A stretch of DNA of 55,943 bases, filler included, from Porpidia crustulata (taxonomy: Eukaryota): the NCBI GenBank assembly GCA_964255105.1. It is 3 parts of 3 records of this genome, joined end to end, with 100 filler letters (N's around TTAATTAATTAA, not from the genome) between each part and the next. Parts side by side here need not be neighbours in the genome. Positions count along the whole stretch, not along the records: positions 18,685 to 37,265 come from CAXUWE010000173.1; 2 more parts are not named here. One strand, given 5' to 3'. Position 1 is the stretch's first letter. Every line of letters begins with the position of its first letter. The translations under genes and the position numbers were made by a program. Below the pieces are notes generated by a model, which worked only from the letters and a program-made list of their open reading frames with translations, ran no database searches and was not told where the DNA came from. Positions 14,521-40,604 of this stretch are shown in pieces.

Positions 14521-15101
14521 TCAAGATTTTCCTTCCGAGCGTACTGAATCTAATAATACTGCAGCACAAGACAAAATAACAAAATTGAAAAAGATACAGT
14601 CAAGAACAAAGTCAATAAATGTTTACTAAACGACAATATTTATTTTTAAATTTAGTCGATCGTTGGTGGCAATATTCTGTCAACGTTGAGCTTGTACAGA
14701 ACACATTAACTCAATAGGAAATTGATTAGCAACACACGTAAAACGATGATCATTTATCTGCATTCGCAAATTTTATCAAAGTCGAAAGTATGTGGATGCT
14801 TTTTCTCATAAGAGCTGACGACTATAGTACTGGTATCCATGCAGATCATGCGCAGGAAGGAACAACCTTCGCTTGAAGCTATTCTTCTTCCTTCATTCAC
14901 AATCATTGTGCGCTCTGGATTATCTTTTTATTGCATTCTAGCGATTCCTGCCGAATTCTCGCGACAAGCTGCTTAGGTGGTTACGTGTTGATACTACGAT
15001 ATTCTTCTTTTTCTTATCAATATAACCTTATACATATACATATATACTCTACGACAGAGAGAGCGTGTGCGATAGCCATATTCAGGACGATTGAGTTGAC
15101 T

Positions 15102-16452: not shown

Positions 16453-16660
16453 ATTAGATCAACGAGTCATTTAATTCTAGATGCAAGAACACTCTCCTAG
16501 GCTCAGCAAAATCGTCATGAAGCATTCAGCAATATATCTTACGATTTCAACAATCCCTCATTTAAGAGAAAATCAACAGTCGGTAAACGTCCGGGAGACT
16601 TGAGGGACGTCTCCTTACGCGCGGGATTCCCTGCGGCCGTCGGTAGCACACGACGAGTAA

Positions 16661-17725: not shown

Positions 17726-18584
17726 AATCCGTGGGATTAGGCGCCTCCTAGACCACAGCCACCTCAATTATCATTTGCTATAGGTGCCTATCCATTTGAA
17801 TGCTGCTCTCTGACAACGATATCAGGCCTCTACAGCGTATCTGCTTCTACACGGTATGGATGGCCTATGCCTGACCACCTCCCTTCCGGCCTCCAACGAT
17901 TGCGACGGGGAGAACATCAACTCTCGCAAGCTTGCAAGGCCTCTACCTTAGGCTAGAACAAACCAAAGATATGGAAGTCACACGTTCTAAGTCATGGTCC
18001 TGTTACTAGGTCACAACTCCCTCAATGCTGTACATCTTCCTTTCCCCGTTTCCCAATTTTCAGGAATTGATTGATTTCAAAGGTCCACCGCCAAAGACAG
18101 TCAGGGGGGAGATACGCATATTTTCAAGGTGGTATGTGGTTTCTCCGAGAAGATAGGTGGTTTTTGCTATGGGAGCAGGTAATATCTTAGATGTTATTGG
18201 TTTTTTTGGAATGGGTGTTTGCCAGCTTCCCAATATCAAGATTATCGTGGTCCATTAAAGAACATTGGGTATTTCAATCGGACTACGACAAGATATATTG
18301 AATGAAAAAGAAATCGCAGGAAGAATCGATAATCGATAAAAGTACGCGGGTCCTAATCTGGAGCTCGGAAAGCACTGGTTTCTATATCAAATGAATGGCG
18401 AAAATTGTACACATCACAACCCGTCACAAAATCGATAAAAATTCCAATTACTTCAAATTTTCTCAACGACTGAACAAGTCAGAAGATACGTTGCTGTAAC
18501 GGTTGTTCTAATAACAACACAAGATATAAACAGAGATGCAAATGAGTAACGAACTCCTATAGCTACTAGACTTGCAGGTCTGGG

Positions 18585-18684
18585 NNNNNNNNNNNNNNNN
18601 NNNNNNNNNNNNNNNNNNNNNNNNNNNNTTAATTAATTAANNNNNNNNNNNNNNNNNNNNNNNNNNNNNNNNNNNNNNNNNNNN
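18585..18684. other. Scaffolding gap with artificial six-frame-stop linker
   Basis: 44 N + TTAATTAATTAA (18629-18640) + 44 N, exactly 100 bp. Confidence 0.95.
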
Positions 18685-19902
18685 GATCTCCCTGAGCCGT
18701 AAGGAATGCTCTCGCCCTTGACAGTTAACAACACACCCCCTGCTTTGTTAATGCACTTTATCCCAGACGCGAAGTATCTTATCTCCTGATGCCACACCCC
18801 CCACAGTCCGAAGATCAACAGAGCAATGGGGCCCATGATTAGCTTCATCGGCACTAGTCAGTCATCATGCACCACAATCTGCACCCCACGCTCCTTCGAG
18901 CAGCTTCCCTCCCAATTCGTCCAGTATCAGCATCTGCTAACCTCTTTGGCGACGGTAGCTTCCTTCAAAGACGATTTCCGATTGGAGCAACCGCCAAAGG
19001 CCAACAGGGAGCGACCGTTCTCGGATATAGAGTTTTCCGGCTGAATGTTGGCCTGCAGCTGAAACACGAACGATATCGCACGTTCAACGTTCTTCTTCCG
19101 GCTTTGGGACTCGCATGGGCTTTGGGCGCATTAGAGAGGGGGTTGGATTTTCTACATTGTGGGAGGCCTTTCACTGAAAAGAACAACGTATACTACAGGC
19201 ACACCGCCGACATGTACTCTATGATATGGCAGATGGAATGGAGTGTTCGGGTGAGTGAGGTCAGGTTTGGTGCTCTACAGCTACGAGGTTGGCTTGATTA
19301 TACTTTGGTTCCAACAGAGTCGGATTTCAGGCATCGCATACACTCAATGCAAAAGATCATATTTGGATGCAGCATGCTGTTTAATTGACTGTCGAGGCTG
19401 GAACGACTGTGATTGCGGAACGCACGACTAATGCTATCATGCGAAAGTATGACCATGTTAGGAAAGCGCATGAAATGAGTGTAATCGCTGCAGAGCAGCA
19501 AGGCAAATAGACTGACGAATAAACATGTTGCATTTTGGTATCTTCTCCCCAGCAAAGCCTCAGAGGGAAGGGCAAGCGTGATGCGATTCCAAACGTTTAG
19601 CACAGTACAGGCATGTAGCTGCTTTGGCCTGGCGGCCGTTTCCGGCCTGGTTGAGGTATCACAAATCTCCTCCCTGCTCTCGGCTGCGTGTGATGAGCAA
19701 GCACTTTCCCTTGACGGATAGGCGAAGTTCTTGGCATTCAAGAGGCCGGTGGCAGCTTCATGACCTGGAGGTGCTAGTGAAGTGCAGGCACTTGTTTGGG
19801 CACGTAGGATCATGCAAGAGCATTAGGGCCTGTTGTAAGCTTGGATTATCCGTTCGACTTAGATTCGTCTCATGGTATCTCTCCTGATTGAAGTAACCCC
19901 AA

Positions 19903-22900
19903 TCAATCATAATTTCCCAGCCCAACTTGACTGGCAAATGCAGTAGAGACACTTCGAAGGTCGTCTTCTCTAGTGGAACTTCCACCAAAACCGCTGCCGT
20001 CGGTGCTACGGCCGCCTGATTCAACGTAACGCTTCAGGCGATCGGATTGACTCAGGCTGGTTTGCTTGGCATCATTGATACTGAGACCAGCCAAGCTGAC
20101 ACCGCCTTGCCCAACGGATTTACCGTCCACCGTGCTGGCTCCATTGATGTCTGACTCTGTGGCGGCAGTGGATTCACCTGCGATACTCTCAGTGGCTCGA
20201 CTCTTAGCACCATTGGGGCGACGGCCGTTAATTGAAGGCCAAGTGTCTTGAAAACCGGAGAACATTTGCGGATAGGCAGATGGGACACCGACTCCACCAA
20301 TCGAAGACGAGTGAACCGACGACACATCATCAGGAATATAGCCTACGATAGAACCAGATTCATTGTATTCTTGACGAGTTCCATTACGACCATTGGACAT
20401 GCCGCTGGCCATGTCAGATGCGCGCTGATATGACATCTGGTAACGTTGAGGGCCGCGGTAAGATTGTTTTGGACGACTGAATTGCAGCAGAGATATCTGG
20501 AGATTGGATAGAGGTCCTTCGACAAGGCAGTTCCGTTCCTTAAAGTGCAGAAGGAGATAATGCCACAAGGGATGTTTGGAGAGGACCTTCGGGTTACCAA
20601 GGATAACCAAGCCGTATTTTGCGCGGGTGAGGGCAACATTGAGACGACGCGGGTCGCTCAAGAAACCGATACCTTGGTGATCATTCGAGCGAACACACGA
20701 GAGAACAATAAAGTCTTTCTCACGGCCTTGGAAAGCATCGACAGACGCGACTTCAATTTCTTTGTAGTTCTCCTTCTTAAAGGTTCCATTGGTCTGCATC
20801 GAGCTGACGACATAGCTTCGCTGGCCCTCGTATGGTGTGATTATCCCAATGTCACTAGGCTGTACACCAGCTTTGAAAAACCGGGTGATAATCTTCTCGA
20901 CATTCGAAGCCTCAGTGCGATTGAGATACGACGTACCGGAAGCCGAGATCTCTTCGTTTCCGAGGTTAGACCAGAACATCATTGGTGAGTCGATGACTGG
21001 CCAGGGGAAGTCCACATCACGGCGAAGTCGCTGCTGCATGGTCACTCCGTTCTGCAGAGATCCTTCGTAGAACATGTTCGATGGAAATTCGGACAAACAC
21101 GGATGCATACGGTACTGTACATTCAAACGGATAGGAGCACAACCAAGTATGACAAGACGCTCAAACAGTGATTGGTTAAGACCTGCTTTGGCGGCCTTTT
21201 TGTTCATGATGACCGGGCCGAGTTGCTGATGGTCACCAACAAGCACAACTTGCTTACAGCCAAGCACTAGGGGGATCATGCACTCAGGCTCTGCAGATTG
21301 GGTAGACTCGTCAATCAGAACAGTGCGGAATTTGAACCTAGAAAGGCGTGGATCACCAGCCCCGACGCAGGTACAGCAGATGACGTCCGCGTTGGTAAGA
21401 ATCTCGCGTTCAGCGCTTCGCGTAAGTTGCTTGTACTTTTTCTCGTCCTGGCTAGATAATTCTCCCAGCTCGCCCTTCAGCTGGTTGAGCTTGACCAACT
21501 CCACATTGCTATCGTTCATGCGGACCTGCTCATGAAGAGAAAGAAACCCAACAGGGGATTCCACGTCCTCGCGAGATTTCGCAGTTACTCGAACAGTCTT
21601 TAATCCCGTTTTATGTATGCGCTCACACAATTGATCCACGGCTACGTTAGAAGGCGCACAAACAAGCACTTGGCCACCGTTGATCTTGGCCAAATGGTAT
21701 ATGATAGTTGCAGAGGTCACAGTCTTGCCAGTACCGGGAGGTCCTTGAATCAGACTCAATGGTTTCTGCAAAACACTCTTTACAGCGTTGATCTGACTAC
21801 CGTTGAGTTCCGGCAAGCCAGGTACGCTGGATTTCTTAGGCATCTGTGTTTTCATAGGCGCTGCTGCAACTTCATGGCCAAGAAGTCGATGAAAGATGTA
21901 TCCGGATACACTCATTTCATCCACTGCAAATGTCTTCATAGCCAATTGCATACGATCAAAGGAGGTTGCTTTCCATACGTAATCGGCACTGAAATTATGA
22001 GTGCATTCGGTGGGCACGGATTTATGGTCACCCTTTGCGCGAAGTTCGATCGTAACTTCGTCAGACTGATTGTTCGGAATCTTTATGACATAGCCGACAC
22101 CTTCCCACTGTGGACGAAGCTCGCCTGTATATTTGATACGCATTTCATCCCCAACCGCGAGCTTCACGTCGCCGAGTTCGAGCTTCGGTAGCACAAAACT
22201 AGCAAGGTGCTTATTGTTAAGTCCAAAGTCCCAACGAACGACAAGCCCATCTTGTGATTGTGACTCTTTGAGCTTTCGATCGTAGTCGGCCTCGATCTTT
22301 ACTAACGGGCCAAAAACATTCTGATATTGGTATGCATCATCATAATGAAGCAATACCGGGGCCGGCTCATCATCCACACCCGCACCTTTTTCCAGATCTG
22401 CAACAGTCGCTCCGGCGTTGTCCTTCCACATCTCCTCAAGCTTAGCAATCATCTGAGGGCTCAGATGGCGTGCACGGAGTTGCTCTTGATCTGATGGTGC
22501 AGAGACAAGCCAAGTCAGAAAGGAGCGGTCTTCGATAAGCGGCTGCCATCGCGACACATCCCAATTCATATCTTTTGACGAGGGCATAGCGGCACATGGC
22601 TGGCGGCAAAGGAGGACCACAACCGTATCCGACTTAGCGGGTATGAAACCCAATAGGAAAACGTTCTTGGTCCCACAGTTGTAGCATTCCAAAACAGTGT
22701 CTCCCAACGAGGAACTAGGATGGAGCTGTACCTCCTTGTGCCTGGCACGAACGAGATGGTTGATGATATGGGAAGATGAGGTGTTACCACGAGCGCTACA
22801 GAACCACTTACTACAAGCAAGACATCTCACGACAGAGCTAGGATTATGGATGCCGCAATAGCTAGCATGAATGATGTCAGTCCAGCCTGTGCCATACTAT

Positions 22901-23216
22901 GAGAGTAGGGCTATGCTCACGCGCACGCATGTGGCGGTAGTTCTTTTTCTTCTTCAGGTCTTATATTCGGCTTGCCATTCGCTCCATCCACTGGCATGCT
23001 TACCAAACTCTCTGTGTCGTCGTCGTCAAATGCCTCTGTGCCTTCGTCCTCATCATCATGGCGACGTCTTCTGGGCCCTCCTGTCAGATTTCCTCTGCCG
23101 TATTCTCTATCAAGAATGTTTTCATCTGGATCGATTGTTGAAAGATCATCCCCGGCGTTTATAGTTGGTCCAGAGTCTGAGACAATAGAATTGTTGATGC
23201 TATTGAAGAACTCCAT
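19903..23216 (-). CDS. UPF1: Regulator of nonsense transcripts 1, ATP-dependent SF1 RNA helicase
   Basis: Intron 22920-22862 gives [29 protein letters not shown] (CH zinc domain). Also [39 protein letters not shown] and [13 protein letters not shown]. Confidence 0.98.
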
Positions 23217-23672
23217 ATCTCACACAACTCGTTTCCCCGCCAGTTGTGCCCAGCTTTTAGACCTAGAATATCTCTCTTCCTGCGTCCGCCAGTGTAGCTT
23301 TTGGGTGGGAATGAGGTTGTAATTTTGGTGCTATGGGGATGAGGGAGTTACGAGTTAAGTGTATTGTAGTGCGGGCTTGACGCGTTTTGCAAAGGGAAGT
23401 GATCGTATGAGATGTAGGATATTTCCTTCAGCGCCAACCAAGACTCCAAAGAAAATGGAATGATGACCAGTGGAGGAAACTTCCAAGAAGTCCTGGCGAA
23501 GTGTCGGTAGGTGCGCAAAGGAAGCGTTCCTGGATCTGATTCGCATTGCTGCGGGTGACCCCACTAGCCGGAACAAATCTCCATCACTCTACTACACCAC
23601 TGATCTTGCTTCTTACCTACAATCATTTGAAATCGTGTTGGTAATGGGAATCAGACCATTTGTAACACAAAG

Positions 23673-24625
23673 ATGATAGTAAGACTTTTCAAAACCCCTC
23701 TGCGATAAACCCGCATCCAAACCCCCACTAACCCACCGTATAGCGACGGCAGGCTCGCCAACGGCGAGACTACCTTTACCGTCGTGCCCTCACTCTCCGC
23801 GATGCTGAAACCGCAGAAAAGCGTGCCAAACTCAAGGCCTCCCTAGCCACCGGCAAACCCCTCGATCCCTCTATCGCCAACGATAAAATTCTCCGAGAAG
23901 ACTACAAATATGACGAAACAGCTCCGAACGACATTCAAGAATCACTCGACGACGAATATGCCCATCTCTCTGGAATTGTCGACCCCCGGCCCTTAGTCAC
24001 AACCTCCCGATCCCCCTCCACCCGACTCTCCGCTTTCGCAAAAGAAATACGACTCCTCATTCCCACCTCCATTCGCCTCAACCGCGGCACACTCGTCCTC
24101 CCAAATTTAGTCAAGTCAGCCAACTCGTCTGGCCTTAGTGATCTTCTCCTCCTTCACGAACACCGCGGAACTCCGACCGCTCTTACAATTTCCCACCTCC
24201 CCCACGGCCCTACCGCATCCTTTTCATTACACAATGTCCTCCTCCGACACGACCTGCCTTCACCCTCACGCGGCACCGTCTCGGAGTCTTACCCACATCT
24301 CCTTTTCGAAGGCTTCGCTACTCCGCTTGGAAAGCGCGTCTGTCAAATCCTCAAACATTTGTTTCCCCCTCGTGAGGCCGCGACGTCGAACCAAAAGGTT
24401 GGGAGCCGCGTGGTTACATTCAAGAACATTGAGGACAGTATTGAAGTTAGACATCACGTGTTTGTGCGGACGGGCTATCAGAGCGTAGAGCTGGCGGAGG
24501 TGGGTCCGAGGATGACGATGCGGCTGTTTGAAATCAGGGGGGGAACATTAGAGGATAAGGCGGGAGATACAGAATGGCATATGAATCAGTATACTCGGAC
24601 GGGGAGGAAGAAAGATTACCTCTGA
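23673..24625 (+). CDS. IMP4: U3 snoRNP / SSU processome Brix-domain protein
   Basis: 6-nt first coding exon ATG ATA, intron 23679-23743 (GTAAGA...CTAAC...TAG), then RRQARQRRDYLYRRA...LDDEYA...TTSRSPSTRL...LHEHRGTP...HLPHGPT...VELAEVGPRMTMRLFEIR...RKKDYL. Most of it is missing from the ORF track because the start is split. Confidence 0.95.
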
Positions 24626-25787
24626 GGTTTTTGGTGGGTATGGAATATACATGCTTTAGACTCCAGTCCTATCTGTGGTCGGTGGGAGGATTCATCCTGA
24701 GATACCGAGTAGTTCGATAGCCATTACCTAGCTCAACGAGAGGGCGGATATTTTCGAGCAAAAACGATACATGTTAGGATGTCGGGCTGGGCAGAGTTAC
24801 ACTGCAGAGGAAAGAGGGGAAGAGGGGGTAGATATGGGGAAGTGGGAGTAGATATAGGAAAAAGAGGAGACTCAGGGTTCCAAGGTGTCAAAGGTGGTAT
24901 CAGTTGTGCATATACTCTAAATGATGCGTCCGGAAATCTTCAAATGGAAAACCTGCAATCTAGAAAGGGTTCCGTGTTGTTGAGGGCCACAGAAGCCTAT
25001 GCAGAATGGAGGCAATCTTTCTTGAATATGAGATGCCTACGCTATACGGCAGACCTTCGCGGTTGGTGTCACATGGAGGAAAGAAAAGGCTTCTACGTGG
25101 CCAATTTTGTATATATAGTTGTTGTTAGAAAGGCTTATCTACTTCCATCGTTCGAAGTTTGAAAGCAATTGTAATCAATGATTAAGTCGAGTAGATATGA
25201 CGAGATCTTTATTCGAAAGCTGAGTAGGTGAAAGACAATAAGTCAAGAGATGAAATAGGGTAGTAAATGCGATAATCTCGATGCCAGTCTCACGTAGCCC
25301 GAAGAGCTGCACAAGGCATTGGTATCTAATGTGCTTACCTTCCACATAGTCACCTAATGAACCAGGCAATCTTTGACTGTATAGAAGAGAGCCGTTGATA
25401 TGCACAGTGGCCAGAACGTCCATAAAGCTGAGAATTGTCGCTGTTGATCTAGATAGGTCAAATACAGGGCGCAATGTTTGATATTGGACGTGTCAGAGCA
25501 TCATCTCCCGGTAAAAGGAATTTATGCCAAGGACCTGGGCTCAGCCCTAGACTGCTACCTGGCGTGCCTGGTTGATAACAGCGCAGTCAAGATCGGTGCT
25601 GATCATATTGACCACGCCTCAACCTACCACATCTGATCAATGGTGCGATCGATAGAAGGCCCATTTAAGTGTTTCGTCATGCTGTTGGTATTCAGGTAGC
25701 CTGTCATCTCATTCTTTCTCAAGACATATCATTTATCACACGAACAAGTCGTTAAGAATAGGGAATACTTTTCGATACCTTTTCATC

Positions 25788-27584
25788 ATGTTAAATTCTA
25801 AGAATGAAGTGGAGCTGGAGAGCTTTGGTGGGGTTAGCGATGCTGCTGCGAAGGGCAAAGAACTCGATTCAGCCATTTCAGGGCCGTCAGATCAATCTTC
25901 GCGAAATCTCACTATGGTGAAACCGACAAACCACGAGGACCCTGGCTTGCCACAGATATCCCGCTCTCGGGCTTCTGTTATCATCTTCCTTCTCACGGGC
26001 GTGAGTTTCCTCAATACTATGGGCTCTGGAATTTTGACCGTTGCGCTCCCAACTATCGCGCGAGACATTGGTTTAAGCGAGAATTTGTTGCTATGGCCGG
26101 CCTCTGTCTATGCTCTCGCCGCGGGATGCACTCTGCTCATCTTCGGCTCTGTGGCGGACGTTGTGGGCAGCAAAAGAGTATGGTTGGCTGGGGCGGGTTT
26201 TTACATCGCATTTACTCTGGCCTGTGGGCTTGCCAGGACGGGTCTGCAACTCGTCATATTTCGAACAATGCTTGGGATAGCTATTTCCATGTGCTTGCCT
26301 AGCGCTGTTAGTATCACCACAAACTCCTTCCCTAGAGGAAAACGACGGAACATTGGATTTGCGTGTATGGGCATGGGACAGCCCCTAGGTTACTCAATAG
26401 GCCTGATACTGGGAGGCGTCTTTACGAACACCATCGGCTGGCGGTGGGGTTACTATCTAAGTGCCATCATAAATGCAGTACTTTTCGCTGGAGCGATATG
26501 GGGTCTACCATCCGAAGTCCGTAAAGAAGCTGTTTCTTGGGGACGCCTATGGCATGAAATCGATTGGATCGGAGCCATCATCATAAGCATCTCACTCGGA
26601 TTTTTATCATATGTTCTGGCGTAAGTTTTCTAAAGTCCAACCTTCTGACAAGTCACTCTAAAATATATAGCATGGTTACTGCGAGCTACTCTCGTCTTGG
26701 AGACGCTCCAAACATCGCCCTTTTAGTAATGGCAATTGTTCTCATGCCAGCATTTGTTCTCTGGGTGGCCCGACAAGAACGCTTGGGAAAGCCAGCAATC
26801 ATCCCCAACAGTCTGTGGAAGAACGTTCCATTTACTGCAACTTGTGTTGCAGTCTTCTTCACTTGGGCAGTCTTCAATTCCTTCCAATATTTTGCCACGC
26901 TCTAGTAAGTTTTCATGGAACTCTTGGTAATTCACCAGCTTATCAGCTCTATCTAGTTTTCAGCGCGTCCAGGGCCTGTCAGCCATCCAGACATCTATCC
27001 GCTTTCTGCCTATGGTAGTGGTAGGAGCTGGGACGAATATCGTCACGGGATTCCTTGTCGACAAAGTCCAAGTTCGAACGCTAGTAGTTATCTCAGCGGC
27101 CATTACGCTTTTGCCGCCTATTCTGATGGCAGTCATCCAACCACGATGGATCTACTGGTCAGCTGCATTTGTAGCAATGTTACTTTCACCCCTTCATCCT
27201 GATGGTCAGTACGCTCACTTTATAGATAGCCGTGTCCCCGGGTTCTCTTACTCAGTCTCGCTAACACCAGCCTCAGTCTTGTTCACCGTCTCAAATCTGA
27301 TCATATCAAACGCATACCCTGGAAAGAACCAAGGTCTCGCAGGAGGAGTTTTCAATGTCATGTCCCAGATTGGAAATTCTGTTGGGCTCGCAGTGACAGC
27401 GGCAATCGCGGCGTCCGTTACAATTCACGGGACGCCTAAAGATCTAAATCCAAATGGCCCCGAGGCATTGTTGAAAGGATATCATGCAGCGTTCTGGACC
27501 ATGCTCGCCAGTATGGTGTTTGTATGCTGCATAGCCTTTTGGGGTCTGCGGAAAGGGGGAAAAGTGGGCAGGAAGATCGAATGA
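25788..27584 (+). CDS. Major facilitator superfamily drug:H+ antiporter (DHA2, 14-TMS type)
   Basis: Introns 26621-26670, 26905-26956 and 27205-27276 join in frame. Motif A-like GSVADVVGSKRV, GGVFTNTIGWRWGYY, QGLAGGVFNVMSQIGNSVGLA. Confidence 0.92.
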
Positions 27585-28496
27585 TGCTGAGGGAAAAGAA
27601 GATGATGATGATAACAATGTATGACAATGTGTTTATGATTGGATGATTCCAGCGATTAGATACCCTTAGATCAGCTTCTTCTACAACTAGCAGCTAAAAG
27701 AGATGCAGCTGCGGCGAGCAGTCCAGCGTACAAGTGTTCCAGCTCGAAGTGCTGAACCAGCAGCCCGGCTCGCCAACCCGAATCTTCAGGCAACAATGAC
27801 TCAACGGGAGCTTCACTCGATGGGGCAGTAAGGCGCCGTCCGGGTGCAGGCCGCTATCCGAGACGCATCGTTGATGTTTCAGAACAGGCATACAGAACAC
27901 AATTGAATGATTACTATCTTTGACGCGAAAGAGTCTCGACAAGAGCATGTTCTGCCGCGGATGAAGCCTCTAGTCCAGACATGTCGATCAACTGCACCTC
28001 CGTACACTCGGGAGGACTTATGCCAGCCACCTGAATCGAAGGAAAATGCCTCAATCACACCCAACAGGATCCAAAACAGCATCAAATGCAGCGCTAGTGC
28101 CAAGTCAGAGGCCATTAGGTGCCGCGCTGCGTCCACATTGGTGGTGATGTTACTTTGTTTTCGATCTCTGGAATTGGACCAATTCATCTCAGATCGATGG
28201 ATAACTCGCAGGTCTGGCGGTCAGGTGAAGCCTCTCGAAGCCTTAGATGCACTGACATCAATTGGGATATTTGCAACAATACGGTTTGTTTTGAAATCTA
28301 AGTCTTCCTACCACAAACGATGACGTCGCTGAGTTACCAATAGTCTACAACAGAGCGATGCGAGCTCGTACGACTCATATCAAGACTCCAAGTCTTCTAC
28401 AACCGATGCGTTGGATTTGGCCGGAAATCAACATCGACGATCAATTTCCGTTGTCTTCCTTGTGCGATGTCGTACAACTTCTACACTGTAGACTTC

Positions 28497-31400
28497 TCAA
28501 GTGTATTTCCTTGCAATTTCTTCCGCGCGATTAAGACGTGCAAGGGTTTCTTCTCTTTCTGCCCGTAGTCGCGTCGTGGAGTCATCTTCAGCCCCCAGCT
28601 TCTCCACTGTTTGATCATCCAAGCCTCCCACGTATAGTGGAGAGAACACAAGAAGTGGTCCTTCGGGATCATCGAGGTAGCGCTCCACTATCAGCCGAGT
28701 GACGTACTCGATGAAGTCATTGAGGGCGATCTCGTAGTAAGATTTCAAGGTGTCGTGGATCTCGTCTTCGAGGTTTTGAGAGTTGCTCATGTGCAGCTCA
28801 GCAAAGAGGGCTGCTGTATCTCGCATATCGATGATCAATTCCGATGTAGGGTTAGCGAACAATGGTGCGGGTGGCGATTTTCTCGAGGATCTGTATCGCT
28901 CCAACGCCTCCTGGAAACGAAATAGTCGGGCCTCGCTGATCTTTTTCTCGAATGCCTGGTTGTTGGTTTGCAGATGTTTGGTGAGAATTTCATCCAGCCG
29001 CTCGGTAAGTTGGCCGACCCTGCGGCTGGTCGCTTGCTTGTTGGCTTGATGAATGAGAGCCATTATCCGTGTGCTCGTATATTTGTCGCCGCACGTCGTT
29101 TCCACTAACTTCTCTGCCACACTGACAGTCATCTTCTGTACTTTGTCGAAATGTCCTTCGGACTTAGCGCGCCATCTGCCGGCTTGCTTGTGGAAAAGGA
29201 CGGGCAGGACATCAGGATTGAGGGTTCCTTGAAGTTCGGTCCCTCTACTAGCTTTGACCTCGTCTCTGATCCACTGGTATATTTGACTGTCTGCGCGGTG
29301 GATCAAGGTTCTTCCCGGAGTCTTGGGATTTGGCGTTGGCTTGTTCAAGCCGGATCCGAAGAGGCTGGGTTTCCCAACAGCTGGTCGAGAGTCCTCGTGT
29401 GACCCNNNNNNNNNNNNNNNNNNNNNNNNNNNNNNNNNNNNNNNNNNNNNNNNNNNNNNNNNNNNNNNNNNNNNNNNNNNNNNNNNNNNNNNNNNNNNNN
29501 NNNNNGTGCCGGATCCGAAGAGATCGGATTTTCCACCAGCTGGTCGAGAGTCCTCGTGTGACCCGGAAGATCTGAAGGCTGCAGATGTGCCGAATGCTGA
29601 TTTTCCGGGTCCGCCCTCGAGAACGGCCGCTGAAAAAGGATTTCCGAAAGCACTGGGGGCGCTATCTTTAGGGGTTATCGATGGTCCCCCGAAGAGACCA
29701 CCTGAAAGCATCGTGGAAGCGCTACCGTTTGCGGCACCCGGTGTCGCTGAAGTTGATTGTGCCTGAAGATAATCGTTTAGCCGAATCTCCTCAAAAGATC
29801 TACTCCGATAGGCTTCCATGGACGGAATACTTTGGAACACTATTGTCGTGGGAGGTTCTTCGATTTCCGAATATGGTATGAATGGAGGGGTGCTGAACCG
29901 ATAATTCTGGAGACCTACTTTCAAAGACCCAAACCCACCAAGAATCCCGCTGTCATTACTAGCTTGCGCAGGTCGGGACTCTGTGGATGTTGTGAAAGGT
30001 GACCATCTCGAAACATGGCTCAAATCGTTTGGGGTGTCCTTACTTGTTGGAATGTCCACAAATGGAGTTGAGTGACCGTCGGTTTCCATATCTAGCGCGA
30101 AATCGTCGTTGAGCTCTCGAATCTTCGTCCGGAGCCTCAATGCCAACGCCGAAATGGCATGGTATCGACCATTGACAGCTTGGTCAGCAAAGGAATGGAA
30201 ATTGTACGCAATATTTGCCAGGTATGTCCTTTTCTGTCCCACCGTTTTCCGCGGCATACCCATGGACTTCAACAATGTTTGGACCGAAGTTTGGCGAGCC
30301 TTGATGGTCGAAAGAATTGTGGGGAAATTGGCTTCGATACGGTTACACAAAAGAGCTGCTAAGTATTTTTTAAGTGGTTGGGTGCCGCGACGAGTTTCTG
30401 GTAGCATAAGCCAAGGTTGGGTGTCAAAGAAGCTTGTCTCTCTCATATGGCGTTCAAGAGGCTTCAGTCCTTCTACAGCTTCAGATGGCGTACGGTTCCG
30501 TACAACAAACCACCCGTGATCAAAGTGCTTCTCCCTATTCTGTGCTAGCTCCAACACCTACTCGATGTCAGTCACTCTGGCCTGCTGAAAATGCTTTCAA
30601 GAATTACCTGATTCTTATCCTGAGCAATGTCGCACTTAGTGATCACTCCTACCGTGCGCGAACCCTTAGGATCATGATAGGACGCCATATCGAACACAGA
30701 CTGAGTTGCTAGGTCATTGGTAGCGCTCGCAACGCATCTAACCAGGTGAGAATCCGGCGTGTCGCCAGCAAATCGCGATCTACTCACATGATGATACTCT
30801 GCGGCCTTGCCATATATGATGTCACCATCTTCTTGACGCCCAACTTCTCTTCTGCTTTCAACCCCATTGTCAATGATTGAAATACCCCCGGTACATCAAC
30901 AATGCTAAAGTACGACCGCGATGGTCCTGATATTTCGATTTTCAATACATCGTCGGAAAAGTGTTTCGGTTCGACTCCTGAGGGAGTTTTGTGTTGCTCT
31001 CCAAGTGATACCGACGCAGTTGTGATTCCCATCAAATCTGTTGCCTGGATATTTCTTCGTCAACTTTGATCAAACAGGGTCCTACGCAATGACATACTTC
31101 CTGCACTATAGCCATAAAAGCTTCAGCTGTGATGTGGGGACTTTCACGAGTGAAAGAAGCATAGTTTTGAGCGCGAACCAGGTGGTCCACCGGTTGATCT
31201 CCACCGAACGACGAACGATGCACGGCTTCGATTGATATTCTCGTGTTCTCAGGTTTGTCTGGCGTTCGACGAGATAAAATTAAGGTTGGGAACCGAGTAC
31301 AGAGTCTTCCTGAGACGGGAAAAGGAATATCCGTCAAGCTTTGAAGGAGGGACGACTTTCCGACCGATTGATCGCCGACGATGACGAGCTAATTGCGTCA

Positions 31401-31590
31401 GTGCTGTTGATTACGATGTCGTGGGATCGATGAGACACATAGTTACCTCTGGAAGATCAACTTCGTGGTTTGCGCCACATGTTCGAAGCTCGTCAATGGC
31501 TTCGAAGAGCTTCTGGCTCTGCTCACTCTTGAAAGGATCCTCACTGAGGAGAGGATCGACCTCGTTCTCAGCAGAACTATTGCTGGTCAT
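28497..31590 (-). CDS. Mx-like dynamin-family GTPase with a GLEBS/FG-repeat insertion in the stalk
   Basis: Introns 31446-31389, 31097-31045, 30787-30738 and 30607-30558 give DLPE|LVIVGDQSVGKSS (G1), LCTRFP (G2), IVDVPG (G3), GVITKCD (G4), HGWFVVRNR, stalk SRGTELQGTLN and a GED-like end (LKSYYEIALNDFIEYV...AEDDSTTRLRAE). Contains a 100-N gap at 29406-29505. Confidence 0.9.
29347..29565 (-). repeat. Coding tandem repeat (~54-57 bp, GSHEDSRPAxGKxxLFGS) on both sides of a gap
   Basis: CAGCTGGTCGAGAGTCCTCGTGTGACCC and CCGGATCCGAAGAG occur on both sides of the gap with some diverged positions. Copy number unresolved. Confidence 0.8.
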
Positions 31591-32635
31591 TGTGAACAAT
31601 GAGGTATATTCAGCAGTGAGGGAAGACACTGATTTAGCTCTGTAAAAGTTCGACTCATGTATTTATCAGAGCTAGACTCCGATTTTTTTTTAGAACAACA
31701 GATAGTGCGTGACAGGGAGGAATAGGGGGGTGGTTAGTCAGGACCCGCCCCCTGCTCCCGAAAACGTTCAACACAAAAGTTATAGATCAGGGGCCTTATC
31801 GTACTATTTTAGAAAGCACGACCAAACTGTGGGGTCCATAATCCTAGGATTGGGAGGCGCGCACAACGGGGGCGTCCCGCGGATCAAATGGGATCCTCAG
31901 CCAGCCAATCATGATGCCGCGTTATGCGCTACTTGGCTGGCGATGTGATTTCAAGCACAAAAATGTTCACATTCTCCTGTGCAGACACATCATGAGCGCG
32001 AAATCTTCCGCGAGCAGGCAAAGCAGAGGCAAACTTCTCGGGGTTGTACGTTAAAAGTGACGATGAATGCATGTAGATAAGTCTGCGCTAGGAGTTCAAA
32101 GCTGCTGTCGTCGCCTCGAAGCAAGACTCAAGGTGATCATGTATGTATGGGCATAGATTTGGATTTCGCGCTCGAAGCAACAGCCCGTTTACGTTATTGC
32201 TGTGCTCGAAAGATCAATCGTACCGCAAGCTCGGGTATCTTTCTTTCGGCCATGTAACCAAGTTCCCTGGACCAATTTAAGCCACATCGTTCATGGCCGT
32301 CTTGCATGGTAAGAGGTTGGCACGGGCGTTCGAGACGGCATATTTCTGTTTATCGTTAGTCTATTTACAGTATGTAAATTCAATCGATCTTTGGGGGCTG
32401 GTCTCATGGCTTGAGCACTACCCTGCAACCCAATATTGTTGTGGCGTTTGATAGTCCAGTACAAAGCGTCTATATAATCAATCTCTTTTTATTCCCGTGT
32501 TGCCGTTGGCATATCAGGCATGGAATTGATGGCATTTAGGAGGTGCTATCTTGGGGGTGAAAAGGAAGGTCTGAGAACTCTGCTAGCGCCCAAATCATGT
32601 GAGGCGGAGATCTCCAAGCCCCCTAATTCCAACAG

Positions 32636-33890
32636 TTGCAAGCTGACAGCCTTGTGATCCTCAAGCAGTTGAACTGCATTTCTATATGCTATAATCACGG
32701 AAATCGCAGATCTAACACAAGAAATTACACGTATGTGATGAAAGACGGACAGTCGTTCACTTTGAATCAATCTTCTGAAACCGTCATGACTGATATCAAA
32801 ATAACTTTTTACCAATCGCGATGCCTAGCAGACGCACGGATATTGGTTTCAAAAATATCGATAGACTTGTCAGGAATGTTAGGAGCACACTTAATCGATA
32901 CTGTGAGATTGAACCTACGGTGGCGACTGATCTCCATATCTAGGCACAAGTCACGTGGGTACCTGCCTCAATGGTTCCCATGGTACGAACGTTACATTCA
33001 GGTTTCTGAGTTTCATGCTGAACGGCTTCCATTTCATGATGTTCTAGGATTTGCTGCTTTCCATGGGTGTGGCAAATATGTTTTACGTCATACGACCTCT
33101 CACGGTTGTACTCGTGAAGAATTGGATTACCTGCTTGCATGCACAGCGATGAGAACAGATCCATATCCTGGTGTCATGGACTCTTTCACTTTTATCGGTG
33201 AATTATTGGGCCAAGGAGCTGATCCAAACTTATCTATTGATTTCTTATCCCATAGGCTTTCCATTCATAGCTATCATATTTCATCATGAACATTGTTTAT
33301 TGAATGATTACCGTTATTCCTTACTAGCTTTTTGGTCTTACCAGGATCTTTCCCGATTCTTCCGCGCTGGAAGTCATTAATGGACTTATTCATATCGCAC
33401 GGTGCAAATCTTGATACCGGTATTATTTCGCATGCGATTCCATTTTCTGGAGGTCCTTCCGAACATACGATATACACACAGTAGAAGCATCATCGCTCTC
33501 ATATGTTGAGAGCTTTCCCCCCCTAGAAAGTACCCGAAGTGTGGAGACTCTCGACGACTCGCTGGGATCTTGTGTAACATTACTGCGATCATATGGTGCG
33601 CTGCAGCGAAGACGCATTCATACCATGAATAAAGATTTCGAGCAGAGTCGTAGCTGATATCAATTGTCATAGGAACAGTCAAATCGCCTGTGTGAGGTAT
33701 GGCCATGGGATTATACTCGCAGTGAAGAACTCATTACGAATCGGAATTTTTCGGAAAGTGTGTTCAAATCCATCAGGGCTACCCTCACGAAAGCCGATCT
33801 CATCGACCCTTCGAATACTTTACTGAGGATTCCCTTACTCCGAAACGAATCAGATTTGGTAGAAAAAACCGGTGACATGGACATCTGACC
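32636..33890 (+). pseudogene. Ankyrin-like C-terminal relic, possibly of a NACHT/NLR-type gene
   Basis: DVLGFAAFHGCGKYV, ELLGQGADPN, DLFISHGANLD and LLRSYGA are ankyrin-like. In-frame TGA at 33287 and 33305 (ISS*TLFIE*L) and an apparent frameshift near 33470. No P-loop visible upstream. Confidence 0.5.
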
Positions 33891-33906
33891 TCGCACCTTT
33901 TTTCAC

Positions 33907-33947
33907 ATAATCGTGGGCACTTACCTCCGGTAGGTGCCCACGATTAT
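33907..33947. repeat. 41-bp near-perfect palindrome/hairpin
   Basis: ATAATCGTGGGCACTTACC-TCC-GGTAGGTGCCCACGATTAT: 19-bp arms with 18 Watson-Crick pairs plus one T:G, 3-nt loop. Confidence 0.9.
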
Positions 33948-34813
33948 CCGTTACTCCTGACTGCACGAGTCCTTCGCCAACGTTCATCAGTCGAGCCCGA
34001 TTGACCAAGAAGAACGCCAGACAAAAGGTCTACATACATTTCGAAGCAGCTTGGCTGAGATTCAGTGTTGCTGGTTGATAGTATAATTGAGAAAGCGAGG
34101 GTTTCCTACTACTTTCGACATCAAACTCTACTCCTCACGTCTACGACACAGACATGGAGCGGCCAGGTTTCTGGTTACAAAGTTGCGACTGAACGATACT
34201 CTCCCTTCTTTGTTCGGGATATCGAGGCTCTATGGAACTGTTTGTGGATTGTTGTTCTACACCGACATGCAGCAACCAACTTTCCCATTCGGTTAATCCG
34301 TTACCAGCAATTTTGGTTTTCTTCATACGGCCTTGAAGTTTCGCCGGGCTGCTTATGGGTCTATTTGGGTCTTCGTCGTATAGAGGAGTGCTTGGTTTTG
34401 AACGCGTCTTTATCTGTCCAGGAGGATCAAGAGCGAAGTATGGCAACCGAAAATTTGGGGAAGTTACAGAGATAATGGCACATACAAGGGTCACAATACG
34501 TTTTGTCGCGAGACTGGCGCTAGGCCATTTTTGGAATATCAACGCATGATGACTATGAACAGAGTCTTAAGATGCAGTAATCTTTTAAACGAAGAAGGTC
34601 TAGGCCCCATTCATACATCTTCAATCTTTGTCTAAGGGTCTAGCCCGATTCTTTAATCCTGAGGGATTGTAACGGTATCGAGACTACAAGCGGGGTCATC
34701 CTAAACCATTATAATAGCACAGAGAATACCAAGGTCGGCCTCATCAGTCTGAAACAACAAGTCTTAACTTCATCTACTCCAAAAGATGTAAAGCCAATAG
34801 TTTCGACTAAAAG

Positions 34814-37079
<2,266 letters not shown>

Positions 37080-37220
37080 AACTTGGGAGAGGTTCTGTGA
37101 GCTAGAACTATCAAAATTGCCATCTATAGCAGATAGGTTTTTTGAAACAGTAAACAAGTGCCCTTTTGTCACAGAGTCAGCTGTCCGTACAAATCAACTA
37201 TCGGGCTAGACCTAACACTA

Positions 37221-37265
37221 CTCGTTTCCACCCCTTAACGGAACACACCCCTCAACGGAACAACT
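37221..37265. mobile_element. Probable terminal inverted repeat of a pogo/Fot1-like (Tc1/mariner) DNA transposon at a contig end
   Basis: 45 bp following a TA (37219-37220), containing two 17-bp direct repeats CACCCCTTAACGGAACA / CACCCCTCAACGGAACA, then the gap. The partner TIR is not visible. Confidence 0.4.
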
Positions 37266-37365
37266 NNNNNNNNNNNNNNNNNNNNNNNNNNNNNNNNNNN
37301 NNNNNNNNNTTAATTAATTAANNNNNNNNNNNNNNNNNNNNNNNNNNNNNNNNNNNNNNNNNNNN
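37266..37365. other. Scaffolding gap with artificial six-frame-stop linker
   Basis: 44 N + TTAATTAATTAA (37310-37321) + 44 N. Confidence 0.95.
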
Positions 37366-37773
37366 GCGGTCTGTCGGCTTGATTATCTTCAAGAAGTCAA
37401 GATCACTCAGCATAATACTCGACGCTTGGTTTAAATGGGGTTTTCAATGTCTGGAGTGAAAAATCCCCCATAAAATATGAATTGTAAGCTATTTACAAAT
37501 TTGCTATCGTCTGCTACTGTCCGAATCTAATGCTCAACTAGCGTATCGTACATACTAGTACTACCTATCGAAAAAGAAAAAGTACAAGAAAAAGATAAAG
37601 ACCCTGGAACGACAAAAGTATAGACGATGAAAACTAATCCCTGGCATGCTTCGTATCCAACAACCAACGTTTCCTTACTCTTCCCCAATGCCATCCGTGG
37701 CTATCCAAGAACGCCCGTCATGCACAAACCCTCCCCCATATGATACTGATTGCGAGTTCTATACGCGCCCTCG

Positions 37774-39246
37774 TCATTCCTTTCCCCTCAACCAGACCAG
37801 CTCTAATACACTGTCGAGATCCGCACCTACCCCTGAGTGCAGATACGTCTGCCTCACTCCTCCATCGATGACTACCGAGTCCATCAACCTATATTGTACC
37901 TTATCTTCCTCCAGGACCATCTTCCGTCTCGTTGGCCCAAGGGAGTGCGCTGTTCCCGCATTGACGGAGCCTTCCACAATAGAGGGTGTGTCCCAGGTCT
38001 CCTCGATTTTGTTGAGGTTCATTCCACCTAGATCGCCTTTGGGATACATCGAAATTGAGAAGCCATTGCTAAGAAGCGTGTCTTTGCCGAACTGCCAGCG
38101 TTGCAAAAAGCAGTCCCCGCACACATCCGCGACAAGATGCATTACGGGTAAGTCGTACCCTTTTCCATCTGGACCTCCGCTTTTCCAGTGGTGTAAAGAG
38201 AGAGGCATATGACCACTCTCGTAGATCCCTGATAAATCATTGTGGACATCGATCTGATGCAACTCCGGCACGTTTGTTAGTTTGGTGTTGGTGTTGTATA
38301 TGATACACTCCATTATTCTTATATCTCCTGCGCTGCTGTGTGAGTCTGATTTGCAGTGATCGTAGTTTTCGTGTATTGATTCCGCCATTGCGACGGAGAG
38401 GAATATCCCAGCGCCGCCGAAACCCATCATTCCATAGCGCACCACAGACCACCAATCCTCTGATAAAGCACCAATGTAGAATTGTTCGCTGGCATCATAC
38501 TCCGCAAGCATGGATAGGACAGATGGCACTGAAGGGAAAAAAGTGTCGTCGTCCATCAGAGCCACCCATTCAGTGTCAGGGCTGCGGTAGGCGTACATGA
38601 CTTCGACAAGAGAAAAGTATCGTTCGGCGAATATGTCTTCTTTGCGCAAGGGTTCAACCAGTGTCACATCGAGTCCAAGTCCACGCATCTTCTGTTGCAA
38701 TTCTGTGACTTGATTGGTATCCGCGGCCACCCACGGGGTTTCTTCATTGACTTCCCCTGCTTCTATGACGACGACGAATAGCTTTATATTGGTGTTTGGC
38801 AGCCATCGCATGAGTTGAGGTATGGTACCATCTAGACGCTTGAGAGTCGTTGAAATGCCGAAAATCACGTGGGAAGCATCCATGGGTGATTTGGGGGGCG
38901 AGGGTACATCCAGGACGAGAGGATCTTTGCAATGTTGCATGTCCACCTTCGAGTCATCGCTCAGATCTATCGTTTGGAATTCGGGAAATAGTTCATGCTC
39001 TATCTTGGTGACTGGGTCGCGCTTGGCTTTGGAAGTAGGACGAGTGATAATATCACGATGGGCGTATCTGATGGGATATGTGAGATTGAGGCGGTCGAGC
39101 CAGTCGAGTCGGTCCGGACATTGTTCGATGGAATGGCCACCGAGCGCAGAGGTCCAATTGCTGCTGTACAGTTGTACGATGAGTATAAGGGAGATGAGGG
39201 AGAGAAGGCAAACAAAAGCAGTGGTGCCGCTACGCAGCAGCATCAT
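37774..39246 (-). CDS. Fringe-like glycosyltransferase (GT31/DUF604-like), type II membrane protein
   Basis: Intronless ORF with an N-terminal anchor, IFGISTTLKRL, ERYFSLV, WVALMDDDTFF (DxD), YIGALSED, MGFGGAGIFLS, LHQID and PLSLHHWKS. First ATG at 39246. Confidence 0.88.
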   Translation of the reverse strand: MMLLRSGTTAFVCLLSLISLILIVQLYSSNWTSALGGHSIEQCPDRLDWLDRLNLTYPIRYAHRDIITRPTSKAKRDPVTKIEHELFPEFQTIDLSDDSKVDMQHCKDPLVLDVPSPPKSPMDASHVIFGISTTLKRLDGTIPQLMRWLPNTNIKLFVVVIEAGEVNEETPWVAADTNQVTELQQKMRGLGLDVTLVEPLRKEDIFAERYFSLVEVMYAYRSPDTEWVALMDDDTFFPSVPSVLSMLAEYDASEQFYIGALSEDWWSVVRYGMMGFGGAGIFLSVAMAESIHENYDHCKSDSHSSAGDIRIMECIIYNTNTKLTNVPELHQIDVHNDLSGIYESGHMPLSLHHWKSGGPDGKGYDLPVMHLVADVCGDCFLQRWQFGKDTLLSNGFSISMYPKGDLGGMNLNKIEETWDTPSIVEGSVNAGTAHSLGPTRRKMVLEEDKVQYRLMDSVVIDGGVRQTYLHSGVGADLDSVLELVWLRGKE

Positions 39247-40604
39247 CCGGCTAATGGCACTATATGAGTTGTAAGCGCCATGCGCTGAATACACTTTAGA
39301 AACGTCGAAACACTGGCTTCATCGTCTCGCGGGGTGTGAAAGGTCGAGTGAAATGTGGGAGTTGTCGAGGAACGACAGTATTTGATGTTTCGGCTTGGGT
39401 GGGGCGGATCAGCCTTCGGGGCAATCTAGCTCTGCTTCGAGCACCGATCGACTCGCGCCTCGTCGCATTGCCGCAAAGCGCATGGCGCCTTCCTAACGGC
39501 GATGTACAAATTTCGTAAATCATAAGAAAAGTCGTCAATCTTCTCACAGCGACCGCTTCATCTGATGTATTTCCAAGCTTTTTCAGTATTTGCTTGATTA
39601 ACGAGGCGTGCGAGGCAAACCTTGACCGAGTCACATGACATTTGGCTGATCTGAATACATTTAGGTAATTTGTACCATAGCATTTATTGATTCTTTCCGG
39701 CCAACGACGAAACCCAGCCGTGGTGCTGGCGTGGCTGGCTACGGACCTGGTGCTTATCAGAAGAGCCTAAAGATTTCGGACAGCAACTTGATCAAATCGA
39801 CAAGTCGCTGAGCACTTGACATGCCATCGAGATCTTTGAATTACGAGATCGTTAACTTGTCAGATAGATCTCGGAGCAGATGACATACATTGGGTCGCTA
39901 AGAACGTGTCGATTTGCAAAAAAACACAATTAATCAGATAACGATATCGAGAAGAAACTCAGATGATTAAGTATCGAAAAGAAGTTCATTTGATTATAGT
40001 TGAACTAGATGGTTCAACATCGAACTGTCTTTTAGTCCTGCTAGAAGAGAAATCATCAAAAATAAATTTATCTAGTTCTATCTGTCCGAGCTTCCGGGCC
40101 ACCCAATGTCATGTCTAAGCATGCCACATCCGTGGCGTGGACGTGTAATGGTTTTGCTGCGACGCAACGAACTCGCCTCGCGTCCGAGATACGCAGTGCC
40201 ATGCACGTCTGGTCGCTATGTCTTGATTGCGCTTGTTGGCTCTACGCCTAACATGACCATGGCCAGAGCCTCTTCGCTCGACAAAACCTCCCCATCTCAA
40301 GCACAACTCCACCCATGAATGTACACGCTGGAGATATACGCTGGAAAAGCCAAGCCGCATGAATGTCATCATTACCTGCGCCCTCGATTGCAATTGCTGT
40401 ACACTTTATCTGACAACAGGCACATGTCAACAATCGAGCATAAAATACTGGCACCCGCCCAAATCCAACCTGCGAAGCGCAGCAATGCTGGAAATATAGT
40501 TGAACATGGTACACAAATATGAGGCAAGGAAAAGCTCGGGTATCGTAAGGCGCGTCAGAGCTAAATCAAATCCAACAGTTCGGATCCTCCATGACTTGGT
40601 TGGC

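Follow-up and report, generated by a model that had tools for sequence, protein, structure and literature searches.

A gene on the minus strand of a 55,943-nucleotide stretch of DNA from Porpidia crustulata (assembly GCA_964255105.1), the whole of which we call the window, encodes an Mx-like (fungal MxF-type) dynamin GTPase with an intact core. The stalk of this protein, whose gene lies at positions 28497-31590, is interrupted by a disordered insert that carries phenylalanine-glycine (FG) repeats, a predicted GLEBS hairpin of the Nup98 type and further FG repeats. The module, at one site, is a conserved family feature over a class-level clade of mostly lichen-forming ascomycetes and not a one-off. 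The protein carries a Nup98-like module but is no Nup98 orthologue. A sequence-only reading had put forward this architecture; it was supported in every part that we examined by sequence, profile and fold comparison, and the peptides and FG motifs that it quoted were all found where it had placed them.

The gene model has five exons, whose borders were set by tblastn of the full-length homologues P0014, P0059 and P0036 against the window together with GT..AG sites. Its parts, and one loop of the stalk, are as follows.

28497..31590, minus strand: whole gene in five exons, from the ATG at 31590 to a stop codon at 28497-28499; about 960 codons, 34 of which an assembly gap touches
31447..31590, minus strand: exon 1, 48 residues, N-terminal helix region of the bundle signalling element (BSE)
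31098..31388, minus strand: exon 2, start of the G domain, G1 motif GDQSVGKS at 31353-31376; Pfam Dynamin_N, 33.4 bits
30788..31044, minus strand: exon 3, G domain, G3 motif DVPG at 30886-30897; Pfam Dynamin_N, 19.1 bits
30608..30737, minus strand: exon 4, G domain, G4 motif TKCD at 30629-30640; Pfam Dynamin_N, 18.1 bits
28500..30557, minus strand: exon 5 as a whole, a single open frame of 686 codons, 34 of them touched by the 100-N gap
30072..30557, minus strand: first part of exon 5, BSE and stalk up to DDFALDMETDGH; Pfam Dynamin_M positions 3-149, 82.6 bits, E 3.7e-23
28500..29282, minus strand: remaining stalk and the GED/BSE C-terminal helices; Dynamin_M positions 170-234, 24.9 bits; aligns to MxA 422-655
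29226..29249, minus strand: SRGTELQG, counterpart of the MxA YRGRELPGF loop by profile alignment to 3zys_B/3szr_A

With G1, G3 and G4 all intact and with matches to Dynamin_N and Dynamin_M, the gene was what the earlier reading had taken it for, an intact dynamin-like gene. The exon-sized pieces scored lower with Dynamin_N than full-length relatives did (61.9-109.8 bits), and the Dynamin_M match was split by the insert. The GED family was not listed for the window pieces (Pfam, E<=1); it reached the Pfam cut-off in the relatives P0008 (30.0 bits) and P0020 (30.7 bits). A single-sequence phmmer search with exon 5 found no match in the PDB at E<=0.001, and a family profile was needed. Built from 74 full-length family members and relatives, this profile matched MxA best (3zys_B, 3.4e-62) and MxB next (5uot, 1e-58; 4whj, 5.6e-58), with weaker matches to CmDnm1 (6fgz, 5.3e-52), the GTPase-BSE construct of Vps1 (1.3e-50), Drp1 (8.1e-49), dynamin-1 (2e-45) and Mgm1 (about 1e-29), the gap in E-value between MxA and the other dynamins being due in part to construct length. 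A stalk-only MxA construct (3ljb_A) was matched by itself (1.2e-7). G-domain-only constructs of MxA and Vps1 scored nearly alike (179 and 176 bits), and the preference for Mx therefore comes mainly from the stalk.

An AlphaFold2 model of the Cladonia homologue P0106 (pLDDT 77.3, pTM 0.64) showed long stalk helices, and the top two Foldseek matches of this model were MxB (4whj_A, 4e-21; 5uot), with TM-scores of 0.78-0.81 to MxA chains. MxA and MxB were thus the best solved relatives by both profile and fold, in keeping with the Mx-like label first given to the gene. The equation of SRGTELQG with the MxA stalk motif also held, as the profile alignment pairs it with YRGRELPGF, which we take to be loop L2 (residues 440-448); the RGTELQG loop is nearly invariant across the family. 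The Mx-like assignment is one of profile and fold matches, the tree described below having been built without reference MxF, Vps1 or Dnm1 sequences. Two further Mx-like proteins are annotated as fusions, P0108 (1314 residues, Haloplaca sp.) with a short-chain dehydrogenase and P0156 (1101 residues, Cordyceps javanica) with WD40 repeats; both may be gene-model fusions.

In the parts of their report that concern us here, Langley et al. (PNAS 2025; PMC11789081) describe MxF1 and MxF2 as uncharacterised fungal dynamin-superfamily proteins that are often misannotated, occur in 0 to 5 copies, are neither Vps1, Dnm1, Mgm1 nor Fzo1, and group with animal Mx. The insert-less relatives of our gene bear misannotations of this kind ('VPS1', 'Dynamin-A', 'Mx2'). 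Those parts of the main text make no mention of nucleoporin, disordered or lichen, so that the FG/GLEBS module is undescribed there, supplements aside.

The stalk is interrupted within exon 5, between two anchors, by an insert with the following features.

30107-30072, minus strand: DDFALDMETDGH, stalk anchor before the insert
29282-29226, minus strand: IYQWIRDEVKASRGTELQG, stalk anchor after the insert
29283..30071, minus strand: disordered insert, FG - GLEBS - FG repeats, at least 263 codons (the assembled count, with 34 that the gap touches)
29928..29939, minus strand: GGFG upstream of the GLEBS, read from the sequence
29760..29900, minus strand: predicted Nup98-type GLEBS hairpin, both arms, exon 5 residues 220-266, 44.0 bits with our own hidden Markov model (HMM)
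29894-29769, minus strand: 42-residue peptide STPPF...RLNDY within it, read from the sequence
29352..29702, minus strand: FG array downstream of the GLEBS (GGLFGG, SAFG twice, SDLFGSG, SLFGSG), tandem units of 27 residues (81 nt)
29702-29685, minus strand: GGLFGG
29654-29643 and 29600-29589, minus strand: SAFG
29522-29511 and 29363-29352, minus strand: LFGS
29406..29505, no strand: 100-N scaffold gap inside the FG tandem repeat

Bounded by DDFALDMETDGH and IYQWIRDEV, the insert is close in length to the 250 residues or so, gap included, that had been estimated for it. In the P0106 model, most of the equivalent insert has a pLDDT <50 and lies between a helix at residues 460-478 and a 12-residue helix at 683-694, the latter leading into the RGTELQG loop. 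By profile alignment, the site maps between MxA residues 416 and 422 and splits the helix aligned to MxA 397-438. As modelled, the insert would emerge about one short helix from the L2-bearing end of the stalk, presumably the end far from the G domain. The PH domain of dynamin, InsB of Vps1, the variable domain of Drp1 and loop L4 of MxA all show a target-binding element from that far end of the stalk. These targeting inserts, however, sit between stalk helices 3 and 4, whereas the insert described here lies one 12-residue helix before L2. The same site is hypervariable in the fungal family, with 12-195 residues (median 59.5) in 50 relatives and 105-502 residues (median 210) in 24 lichen-clade proteins. 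Among the 50 relatives, the loop held no FG except for one each in P0164 and P0198 and three to four in two Geoglossum proteins. That the whole insert might be an intron was ruled out by its continuously open frame and its conservation at the protein level.

The GLEBS assignment came from an HMM of 62 positions made from 28 fungal Nup98-type nucleoporins (41 were collected, and 13 that the anchor regular expression missed were dropped). On the whole window protein, this HMM scored 44.0 bits over positions 12-59 of 62 (domain E 1.7e-13, in a set of 198 sequences), whereas 2000 shuffles each of the pre-gap insert and of the matched 47 residues gave at most 10.4 and 8.5 bits, respectively. The proposal of a Nup98-type GLEBS flanked by FG repeats was thereby upheld. 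Ninety of the 109 family sequences matched at the same site (domain E <1e-3), as against none of 89 insert-less relatives. An hhalign comparison of the family GLEBS with the nucleoporin GLEBS profile gave a probability of 99.7 (E 3.3e-25, 54 columns); both sets had been pre-selected by the same anchor regular expression, so the whole-protein HMM is the cleaner test.

When the 173-residue pre-gap insert was compared with the PDB, its best four matches were Nup98 GLEBS chains of Rae1 complexes (3mmy_B, 7byf_B, 4owr_B and 7vpg_B), all weak (E 0.19-0.3), with a clean alignment over 25 residues. SFEEIRL of the window protein aligns to SLEELRL of 3mmy_B, and its EE pair to E201/E202 of Nup98. In the section of PMC3783196 used here, these two residues are reported to be salt-bridged to Rae1 R172/R216, and the corresponding E154/E155 of Nup116 to be required for Gle2 binding. 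The pair bridging to Rae1/Gle2 is kept in 90 of 92 family segments. The family consensus reads kVr...P.T...PF.......FQsI..m.pY..FSFEELRLSDYlQ (conservation: S 98%, EE 99%, RL 100%, Q 89-91%), and its columns are conserved to the same degree as the stalk core. Judged by these comparisons, the module is a Nup98-type GLEBS over both hairpin arms, with the putative salt-bridge glutamates kept.

The 230 known residues of the window insert contain six FG, and PF13634 (Nucleoporin_FG) was not listed for it at E<=1. Across the family, FG occurs at 2.14 per 100 residues inside the inserts and at 0.15 outside, a 14-fold enrichment. GLFG is the commonest of 461 FG contexts (57; GGFG 38, SLFG 29), and of 91 inserts 83 have FG after the GLEBS and 46 have it on both sides. 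Both flanks of the scaffold gap read GSHEDSRPA.GK..LFGSG, a direct repeat. Contigs of run X1, which are DNA (introns are present) and possibly come from the window's own sample, extend 89 letters into the gap. Their three joints are a 22-letter bridge, a return of 34 letters with 2 letters between (a 36-nt period) and a return of 81 letters; all three keep the reading frame by arithmetic, and they encode further xFG motifs by eye. Because the joints are in frame, we read the gap as a collapsed FG tandem repeat with units of 27 and 12 residues, and its frame not as an accident of the 100 Ns. Tandem Repeats Finder reported nothing at 29200-30200, since the gap cuts the repeat; the 81-nt and 36-nt periods came from the contig joints.

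An initial search found 104 dynamin-like relatives, of which the named ones were all Lecanoromycetes (Teloschistales genera, Stereocaulon, Lepraria and Dirinaria) or Peltula (Lichinomycetes). A search with the G domain added carriers in Cladonia, Xanthomendoza, Sarcosagium (leotiomyceta incertae sedis) and Sarea resinae (Sareomycetes), as well as two Geoglossum proteins with FG in the loop, one of them with a degenerate GLEBS tail. Relatives found by that search in Leotiomycetes, Sordariomycetes, Pezizomycetes, Orbiliomycetes and Eurotiomycetes had no FG or GLEBS. Among the best 150 cluster representatives from a library of 1.84 billion proteins, 42 carried the GLEBS, 35 of them in the top 43 ranks. 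The insert was open, and at the same site, in 105 of the 108 relatives that have both flanks, many of them single uninterrupted open reading frames on other contigs. The link between GTPase and GLEBS, which the earlier reading had placed on one side of the gap, is thus no misjoin: about 90 relatives, spread over many taxa, have the same insert at this very site within the reading frame.

We built a tree from 66 search-derived proteins (685 columns, insert columns dropped; quick IQ-TREE run, LG+G4). Twenty-one lichen-clade rows fell on one side of a branch with weak support (74 in the SH-like approximate likelihood ratio test): 18 were positive with the GLEBS HMM, P0056 and P0081 were weak, and P0046 lacked the GLEBS. 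This clade adjoins a clade of Leotiomycetes and Sordariomycetes, and the Geoglossum group lies nearby. One gain followed by loss, or two gains, would both fit the tree. The roughly 19 family sequences without a clear GLEBS match comprise five weak or damaged motifs and three gene models that excise the segment, and the rest have FG-only or S/R/K-rich loops. One GLEBS-less sub-group (loci L014-L018; P0044, P0058, P0073 and P0102) has an S/R/K-rich loop (..SRSPSRWSQASTPSKSK..) with few FG; in L014 and L017 the open frame begins inside the insert, which implies an intron or a break upstream.

Outside this family, a related combination appeared in another deep Mx-like lineage, set apart by branches with a support of 100. 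Its member P0352 (912 residues) lacks the stalk insert and has, after the GED, a tail with four FG and a GLEBS match at the very C-terminus (18.4 bits, domain E 1.3e-5; ...FYSIT......SFEELRLADY). As P0352 is known from one database entry with no genomic locus, its tail may be a gene-model fusion. Its relative P0310 (937 residues) has an FG-only C-terminal tail, with nine FG in the last 165 residues, and P0311 (900 residues), of the same lineage, has an FG-only insert at the stalk site. The stalk and tail versions would then be independent, and Mx-like GTPase plus pore module an apparently recurrent combination. The GLEBS has likewise been captured by another non-nucleoporin in Mycena, a basidiomycete, in which P0200 (Mycena rosella, 751 residues) and P0220 (Mycena olivaceomarginata, 802 residues) join it to a BMT5-like rRNA methyltransferase. 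The P0200 GLEBS scored 33.9 bits, over the Pfam cut-off, and P0220 also has FG repeats. This fusion is suggestive in view of the part that Gle2, anchored on a GLEBS, plays in the export of pre-60S particles.

The GLEBS segment has intron-like borders that enclose a candidate in-frame exitron.

29763..29918, minus strand: candidate exitron V214..Q265, 156 nt, GTAGGT...CTTCAG, whose excision would take away the GLEBS and nothing else

Three NCBI gene models excise the V-to-Q segment that their siblings keep: P0040 (Lepraria) as against P0020, P0060 (Squamulea squamosa) as against P0041, and P0065 (Seirophora lacunosa) as against P0038. The V codon with its successor is GTA-GGT or GTA-CGT, and Q is encoded by CAG, in the DNA of the window and of loci L001, L003 and L012 (of which L001 and L003 hardly differ from each other and are related to the window). 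In 80 of 82 sequences the border V is followed by R, G or S, all of them residues that have NGT codons; branch-site matches were imperfect by eye (CTAAAC, CTAAGC and CTGAGC). An exitron that would switch the GLEBS on or off is one possible reading of the V-to-Q segment, another being that it merely misleads gene predictors. The fusion stands in spite of such borders, given how strongly the segment is constrained at the protein level.

The module shares with Nup98/Nup116/Nup145N-type GLFG nucleoporins the order FG - GLEBS - FG, a GLEBS that has both arms and the glutamate pair, and GLFG as its most frequent FG context. It differs from Nup98 in its several-fold lower FG density and in its position within a GTPase stalk. 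PF04096, the Nup98 domain for autoproteolysis and pore anchoring, was not listed for the window pieces (E<=1) or for 70 other scanned proteins (E<=0.01), and was present in the true nucleoporins collected for comparison.

Taken together with what is known of GLEBS, the architecture suggests that one stalk loop has grown into a copy of the Nup98/Nup116 N-terminal region: FG, GLEBS and more FG. The hairpin would recruit the WD40 mRNA-export factor Gle2/Rae1, on the top face of its propeller, and the FG repeats would engage transport receptors and other FG domains. Oligomerisation would multiply the valency of the module, and the oligomerising GTPase could be docked at nuclear pores or build cytoplasmic pore-like assemblies. 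We lean towards a protein that engages Gle2 and the FG/transport-receptor system, at pores or at pore-like assemblies. By analogy with MX2, its most likely role would be the control of pore-dependent cargo, that is, retrotransposon or virus particles and their ribonucleoproteins (RNPs).

Mx proteins are classic antiviral effectors. Human MX2/MxB and MxA, the best profile and fold matches, resemble the window protein in the G domain, the BSE, the four-helix stalk and an L2-type RG.EL.G loop. According to the portion of 10.1101/2023.06.22.545931 drawn on here, MX2 acts at the pore or close to it, forming condensates in which FG nucleoporins and importin-beta-type receptors collect and which serve as pore decoys for capsids. 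MX2, however, recruits nucleoporins in trans through a disordered N-terminal region, without FG or GLEBS of its own, whereas the window protein encodes the module in cis inside the stalk; its host, moreover, is a fungus and unlike that of MX2 has no interferon system. In yeast, as far as the consulted part of PMC5918913 reports, Ty3 Gag3 is a ligand of the FG region of Nup116 in vitro, and traces of conflict with Ty elements are seen in pore genes. By this analogy we favour a pore-docked or pore-mimicking Mx that would act on nucleus-bound parasites or RNPs, and we grade an immune role lower than the Gle2/FG mechanism itself. A bolder version seems possible to us but doubtful: that Mx GTPases with a hard-wired pore mimic are old, recurrent fungal restriction factors, in which Gle2-loaded FG-GLEBS oligomers would build decoy pores that trap retrotransposon or virus particles, or would present the Rae1-Nup98 surface that viral export blockers target, with GLEBS display perhaps switched by the exitron and the pore link of MX2 being ancestral.

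Several results weigh against this interpretation. The earlier reading had expected Pfam matches throughout, and of these Dynamin_N and Dynamin_M appeared, whereas GED was unlisted in the window and Nup98_GLEBS (PF21240) stayed under its cut-off of 27 bits, with 20.3 bits for the 173-residue piece (E 5.6e-4) and 18.4 for the whole of exon 5. The PF21240 match spans positions 18-39 of 39 only, the C-terminal half of the profile. In the Pfam scan of relatives, which covered 54 of the 108 family proteins, 12 matched PF21240 at E<=0.01 and none reached 27 bits, the best being the closest relative, P0001 (26.5); PF13634 was found at E<=0.01 in seven of the 54 and reached its cut-off in one (P0052, 41.1 bits). 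FG density is several-fold under that of the true nucleoporin P0105 (54 FG in 1016 residues). About 11 family members without GLEBS keep FG or have S/R/K-rich loops and, given the intron-like borders, the GLEBS might be removed from some or all transcripts. The tree, in addition, follows species classes as a conserved orthologue would, and the neighbouring genes are housekeeping; this fits a cellular role equally with an immune one.

Such a cellular role could be that of a housekeeping, pore-associated remodeller, constitutive and at the cytoplasmic pore face, which would use Gle2 as an RNA/RNP-binding adaptor to remodel or release mRNPs or pre-60S particles, or would serve pore assembly or quality control, with no immune part to play. 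The stalk-insert clade tracks fungal classes like a conserved orthologue, the GLEBS columns are conserved like the stalk core, and the neighbours (UPF1, Brix, MFS transporter) are ordinary; GLEBS-anchored Gle2 is also needed for pre-60S export, and Rae1-GLEBS is reported to bind single-stranded RNA (PMC3783196, in part). Yet fungal Mx-like genes are described as dispensable, with a copy number of 0 to 5, in the relevant part of PMC11789081; Leotiomycetes and Sordariomycetes keep the orthologue without FG or GLEBS, and some lichen-clade members have lost the GLEBS. We consider this reading rather unlikely. The protein could instead be a sink or switch that, when induced or assembled, titrates Gle2/Rae1 off Nup98-family nucleoporins and halts mRNA export in an abortive or stress response, with splicing of the GLEBS as a possible toggle. 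Over-expressed Nup98 GLEBS mislocalises Rae1, with poly(A)+ RNA building up in the nuclei of HeLa cells, according to the excerpt of PMC3783196 cited above; the GTA-NGT...CAG borders enclose exactly the GLEBS in the window, L001/L003 and L012, the three gene models excise exactly that segment, and R, G or S follows the border V almost throughout. However, the excising models probably stem from ab initio prediction, the branch sites match imperfectly, single-base mutational neighbours can yield the R/G/S pattern as well, and the FG repeats would be left unexplained. We regard such a sink or switch as improbable.

The two remaining explanations concern the partner of the hairpin and the reality of the gene. 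GLEBS motifs and their WD40 partners form paralogous pairs, and the EE pair is common to both kinds of motif. The hairpin could for that reason bind Bub3, the Rae1 paralogue and partner of the Bub1/Mad3 GLEBS, rather than Gle2, and tie the protein to the spindle checkpoint. The match is, however, of the Nup98 type over both arms, at 44 bits, Nup98_GLEBS was the sole GLEBS-type Pfam family listed at E<=1 for the window pieces, and the FG repeats flank it as in Nup98/Nup116 and unlike in Bub1/Mad3; a Bub3 partner is very unlikely. An artefact, be it an intron that went unrecognised, a faulty assembly over the gap or filler that codes for nothing, might be suspected from the 100-N gap within the insert and from the contigs of the window being joined by stop-codon linkers. 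Against this, a single side of the gap holds, in one open frame, the GTPase with the initial half of its stalk, the GLEBS and four FG motifs. The contig joints in the gap are multiples of three, and the linkers are 8-11 kb from the gene; with the insert open at one site in nearly all relatives that have both flanks, and the GLEBS conserved at the protein level, we give this explanation almost no weight.

That lichen-forming fungi share this design suggests a tie between Mx-type proteins and the nuclear pore that is far older than the vertebrates. A full-text literature search, with supplements and subscription journals outside its coverage, found no description of a dynamin or Mx protein with a GLEBS/FG architecture. 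The claim of novelty in the sequence-only reading thus stands as to publication and falls as to rarity, the fusion being a conserved family feature (90 of 109). Neither the GTPase family nor the pore module is new in itself; what is new here is their combination, which is undescribed, conserved and apparently recurrent. The family offers a natural, genetically simple system in which to ask whether pore mimicry is the ancestral Mx mechanism, and bears as well on the role of GLEBS-Gle2 outside the pore and on FG valency on a GTP-driven scaffold. It provides a first concrete functional lead for fungal MxF proteins, whose function is unassigned. Nucleoporin modules can evidently be captured by other proteins, the methyltransferase fusion being a further case.

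As to its surroundings, the window consists of three joined contigs (1-18584, 18685-37265 and 37366-55943), and the gene lies well inside the middle one. The contigs are separated by two spacers.

18585-18684: contig spacer, 44 N + TTAATTAATTAA + 44 N, a six-frame-stop linker
37266-37365: contig spacer of the same make-up

These linkers join separate contigs, so that gene neighbourhood across them is not real linkage and the secure neighbours are those on the 18685-37265 piece: UPF1 (19906-22896, minus strand), a Brix protein, an MFS transporter and a GMC oxidoreductase. A defence island was considered and ruled out, the adjoining genes being ordinary or housekeeping. Other genes in the window (including those at 41156-45385 and 6069-7106, both on the minus strand) encode a class V myosin, a Ste2-type pheromone receptor, a caleosin, NAP1, a P5-type ATPase and a 2-hydroxyacid dehydrogenase, all ordinary fungal proteins.

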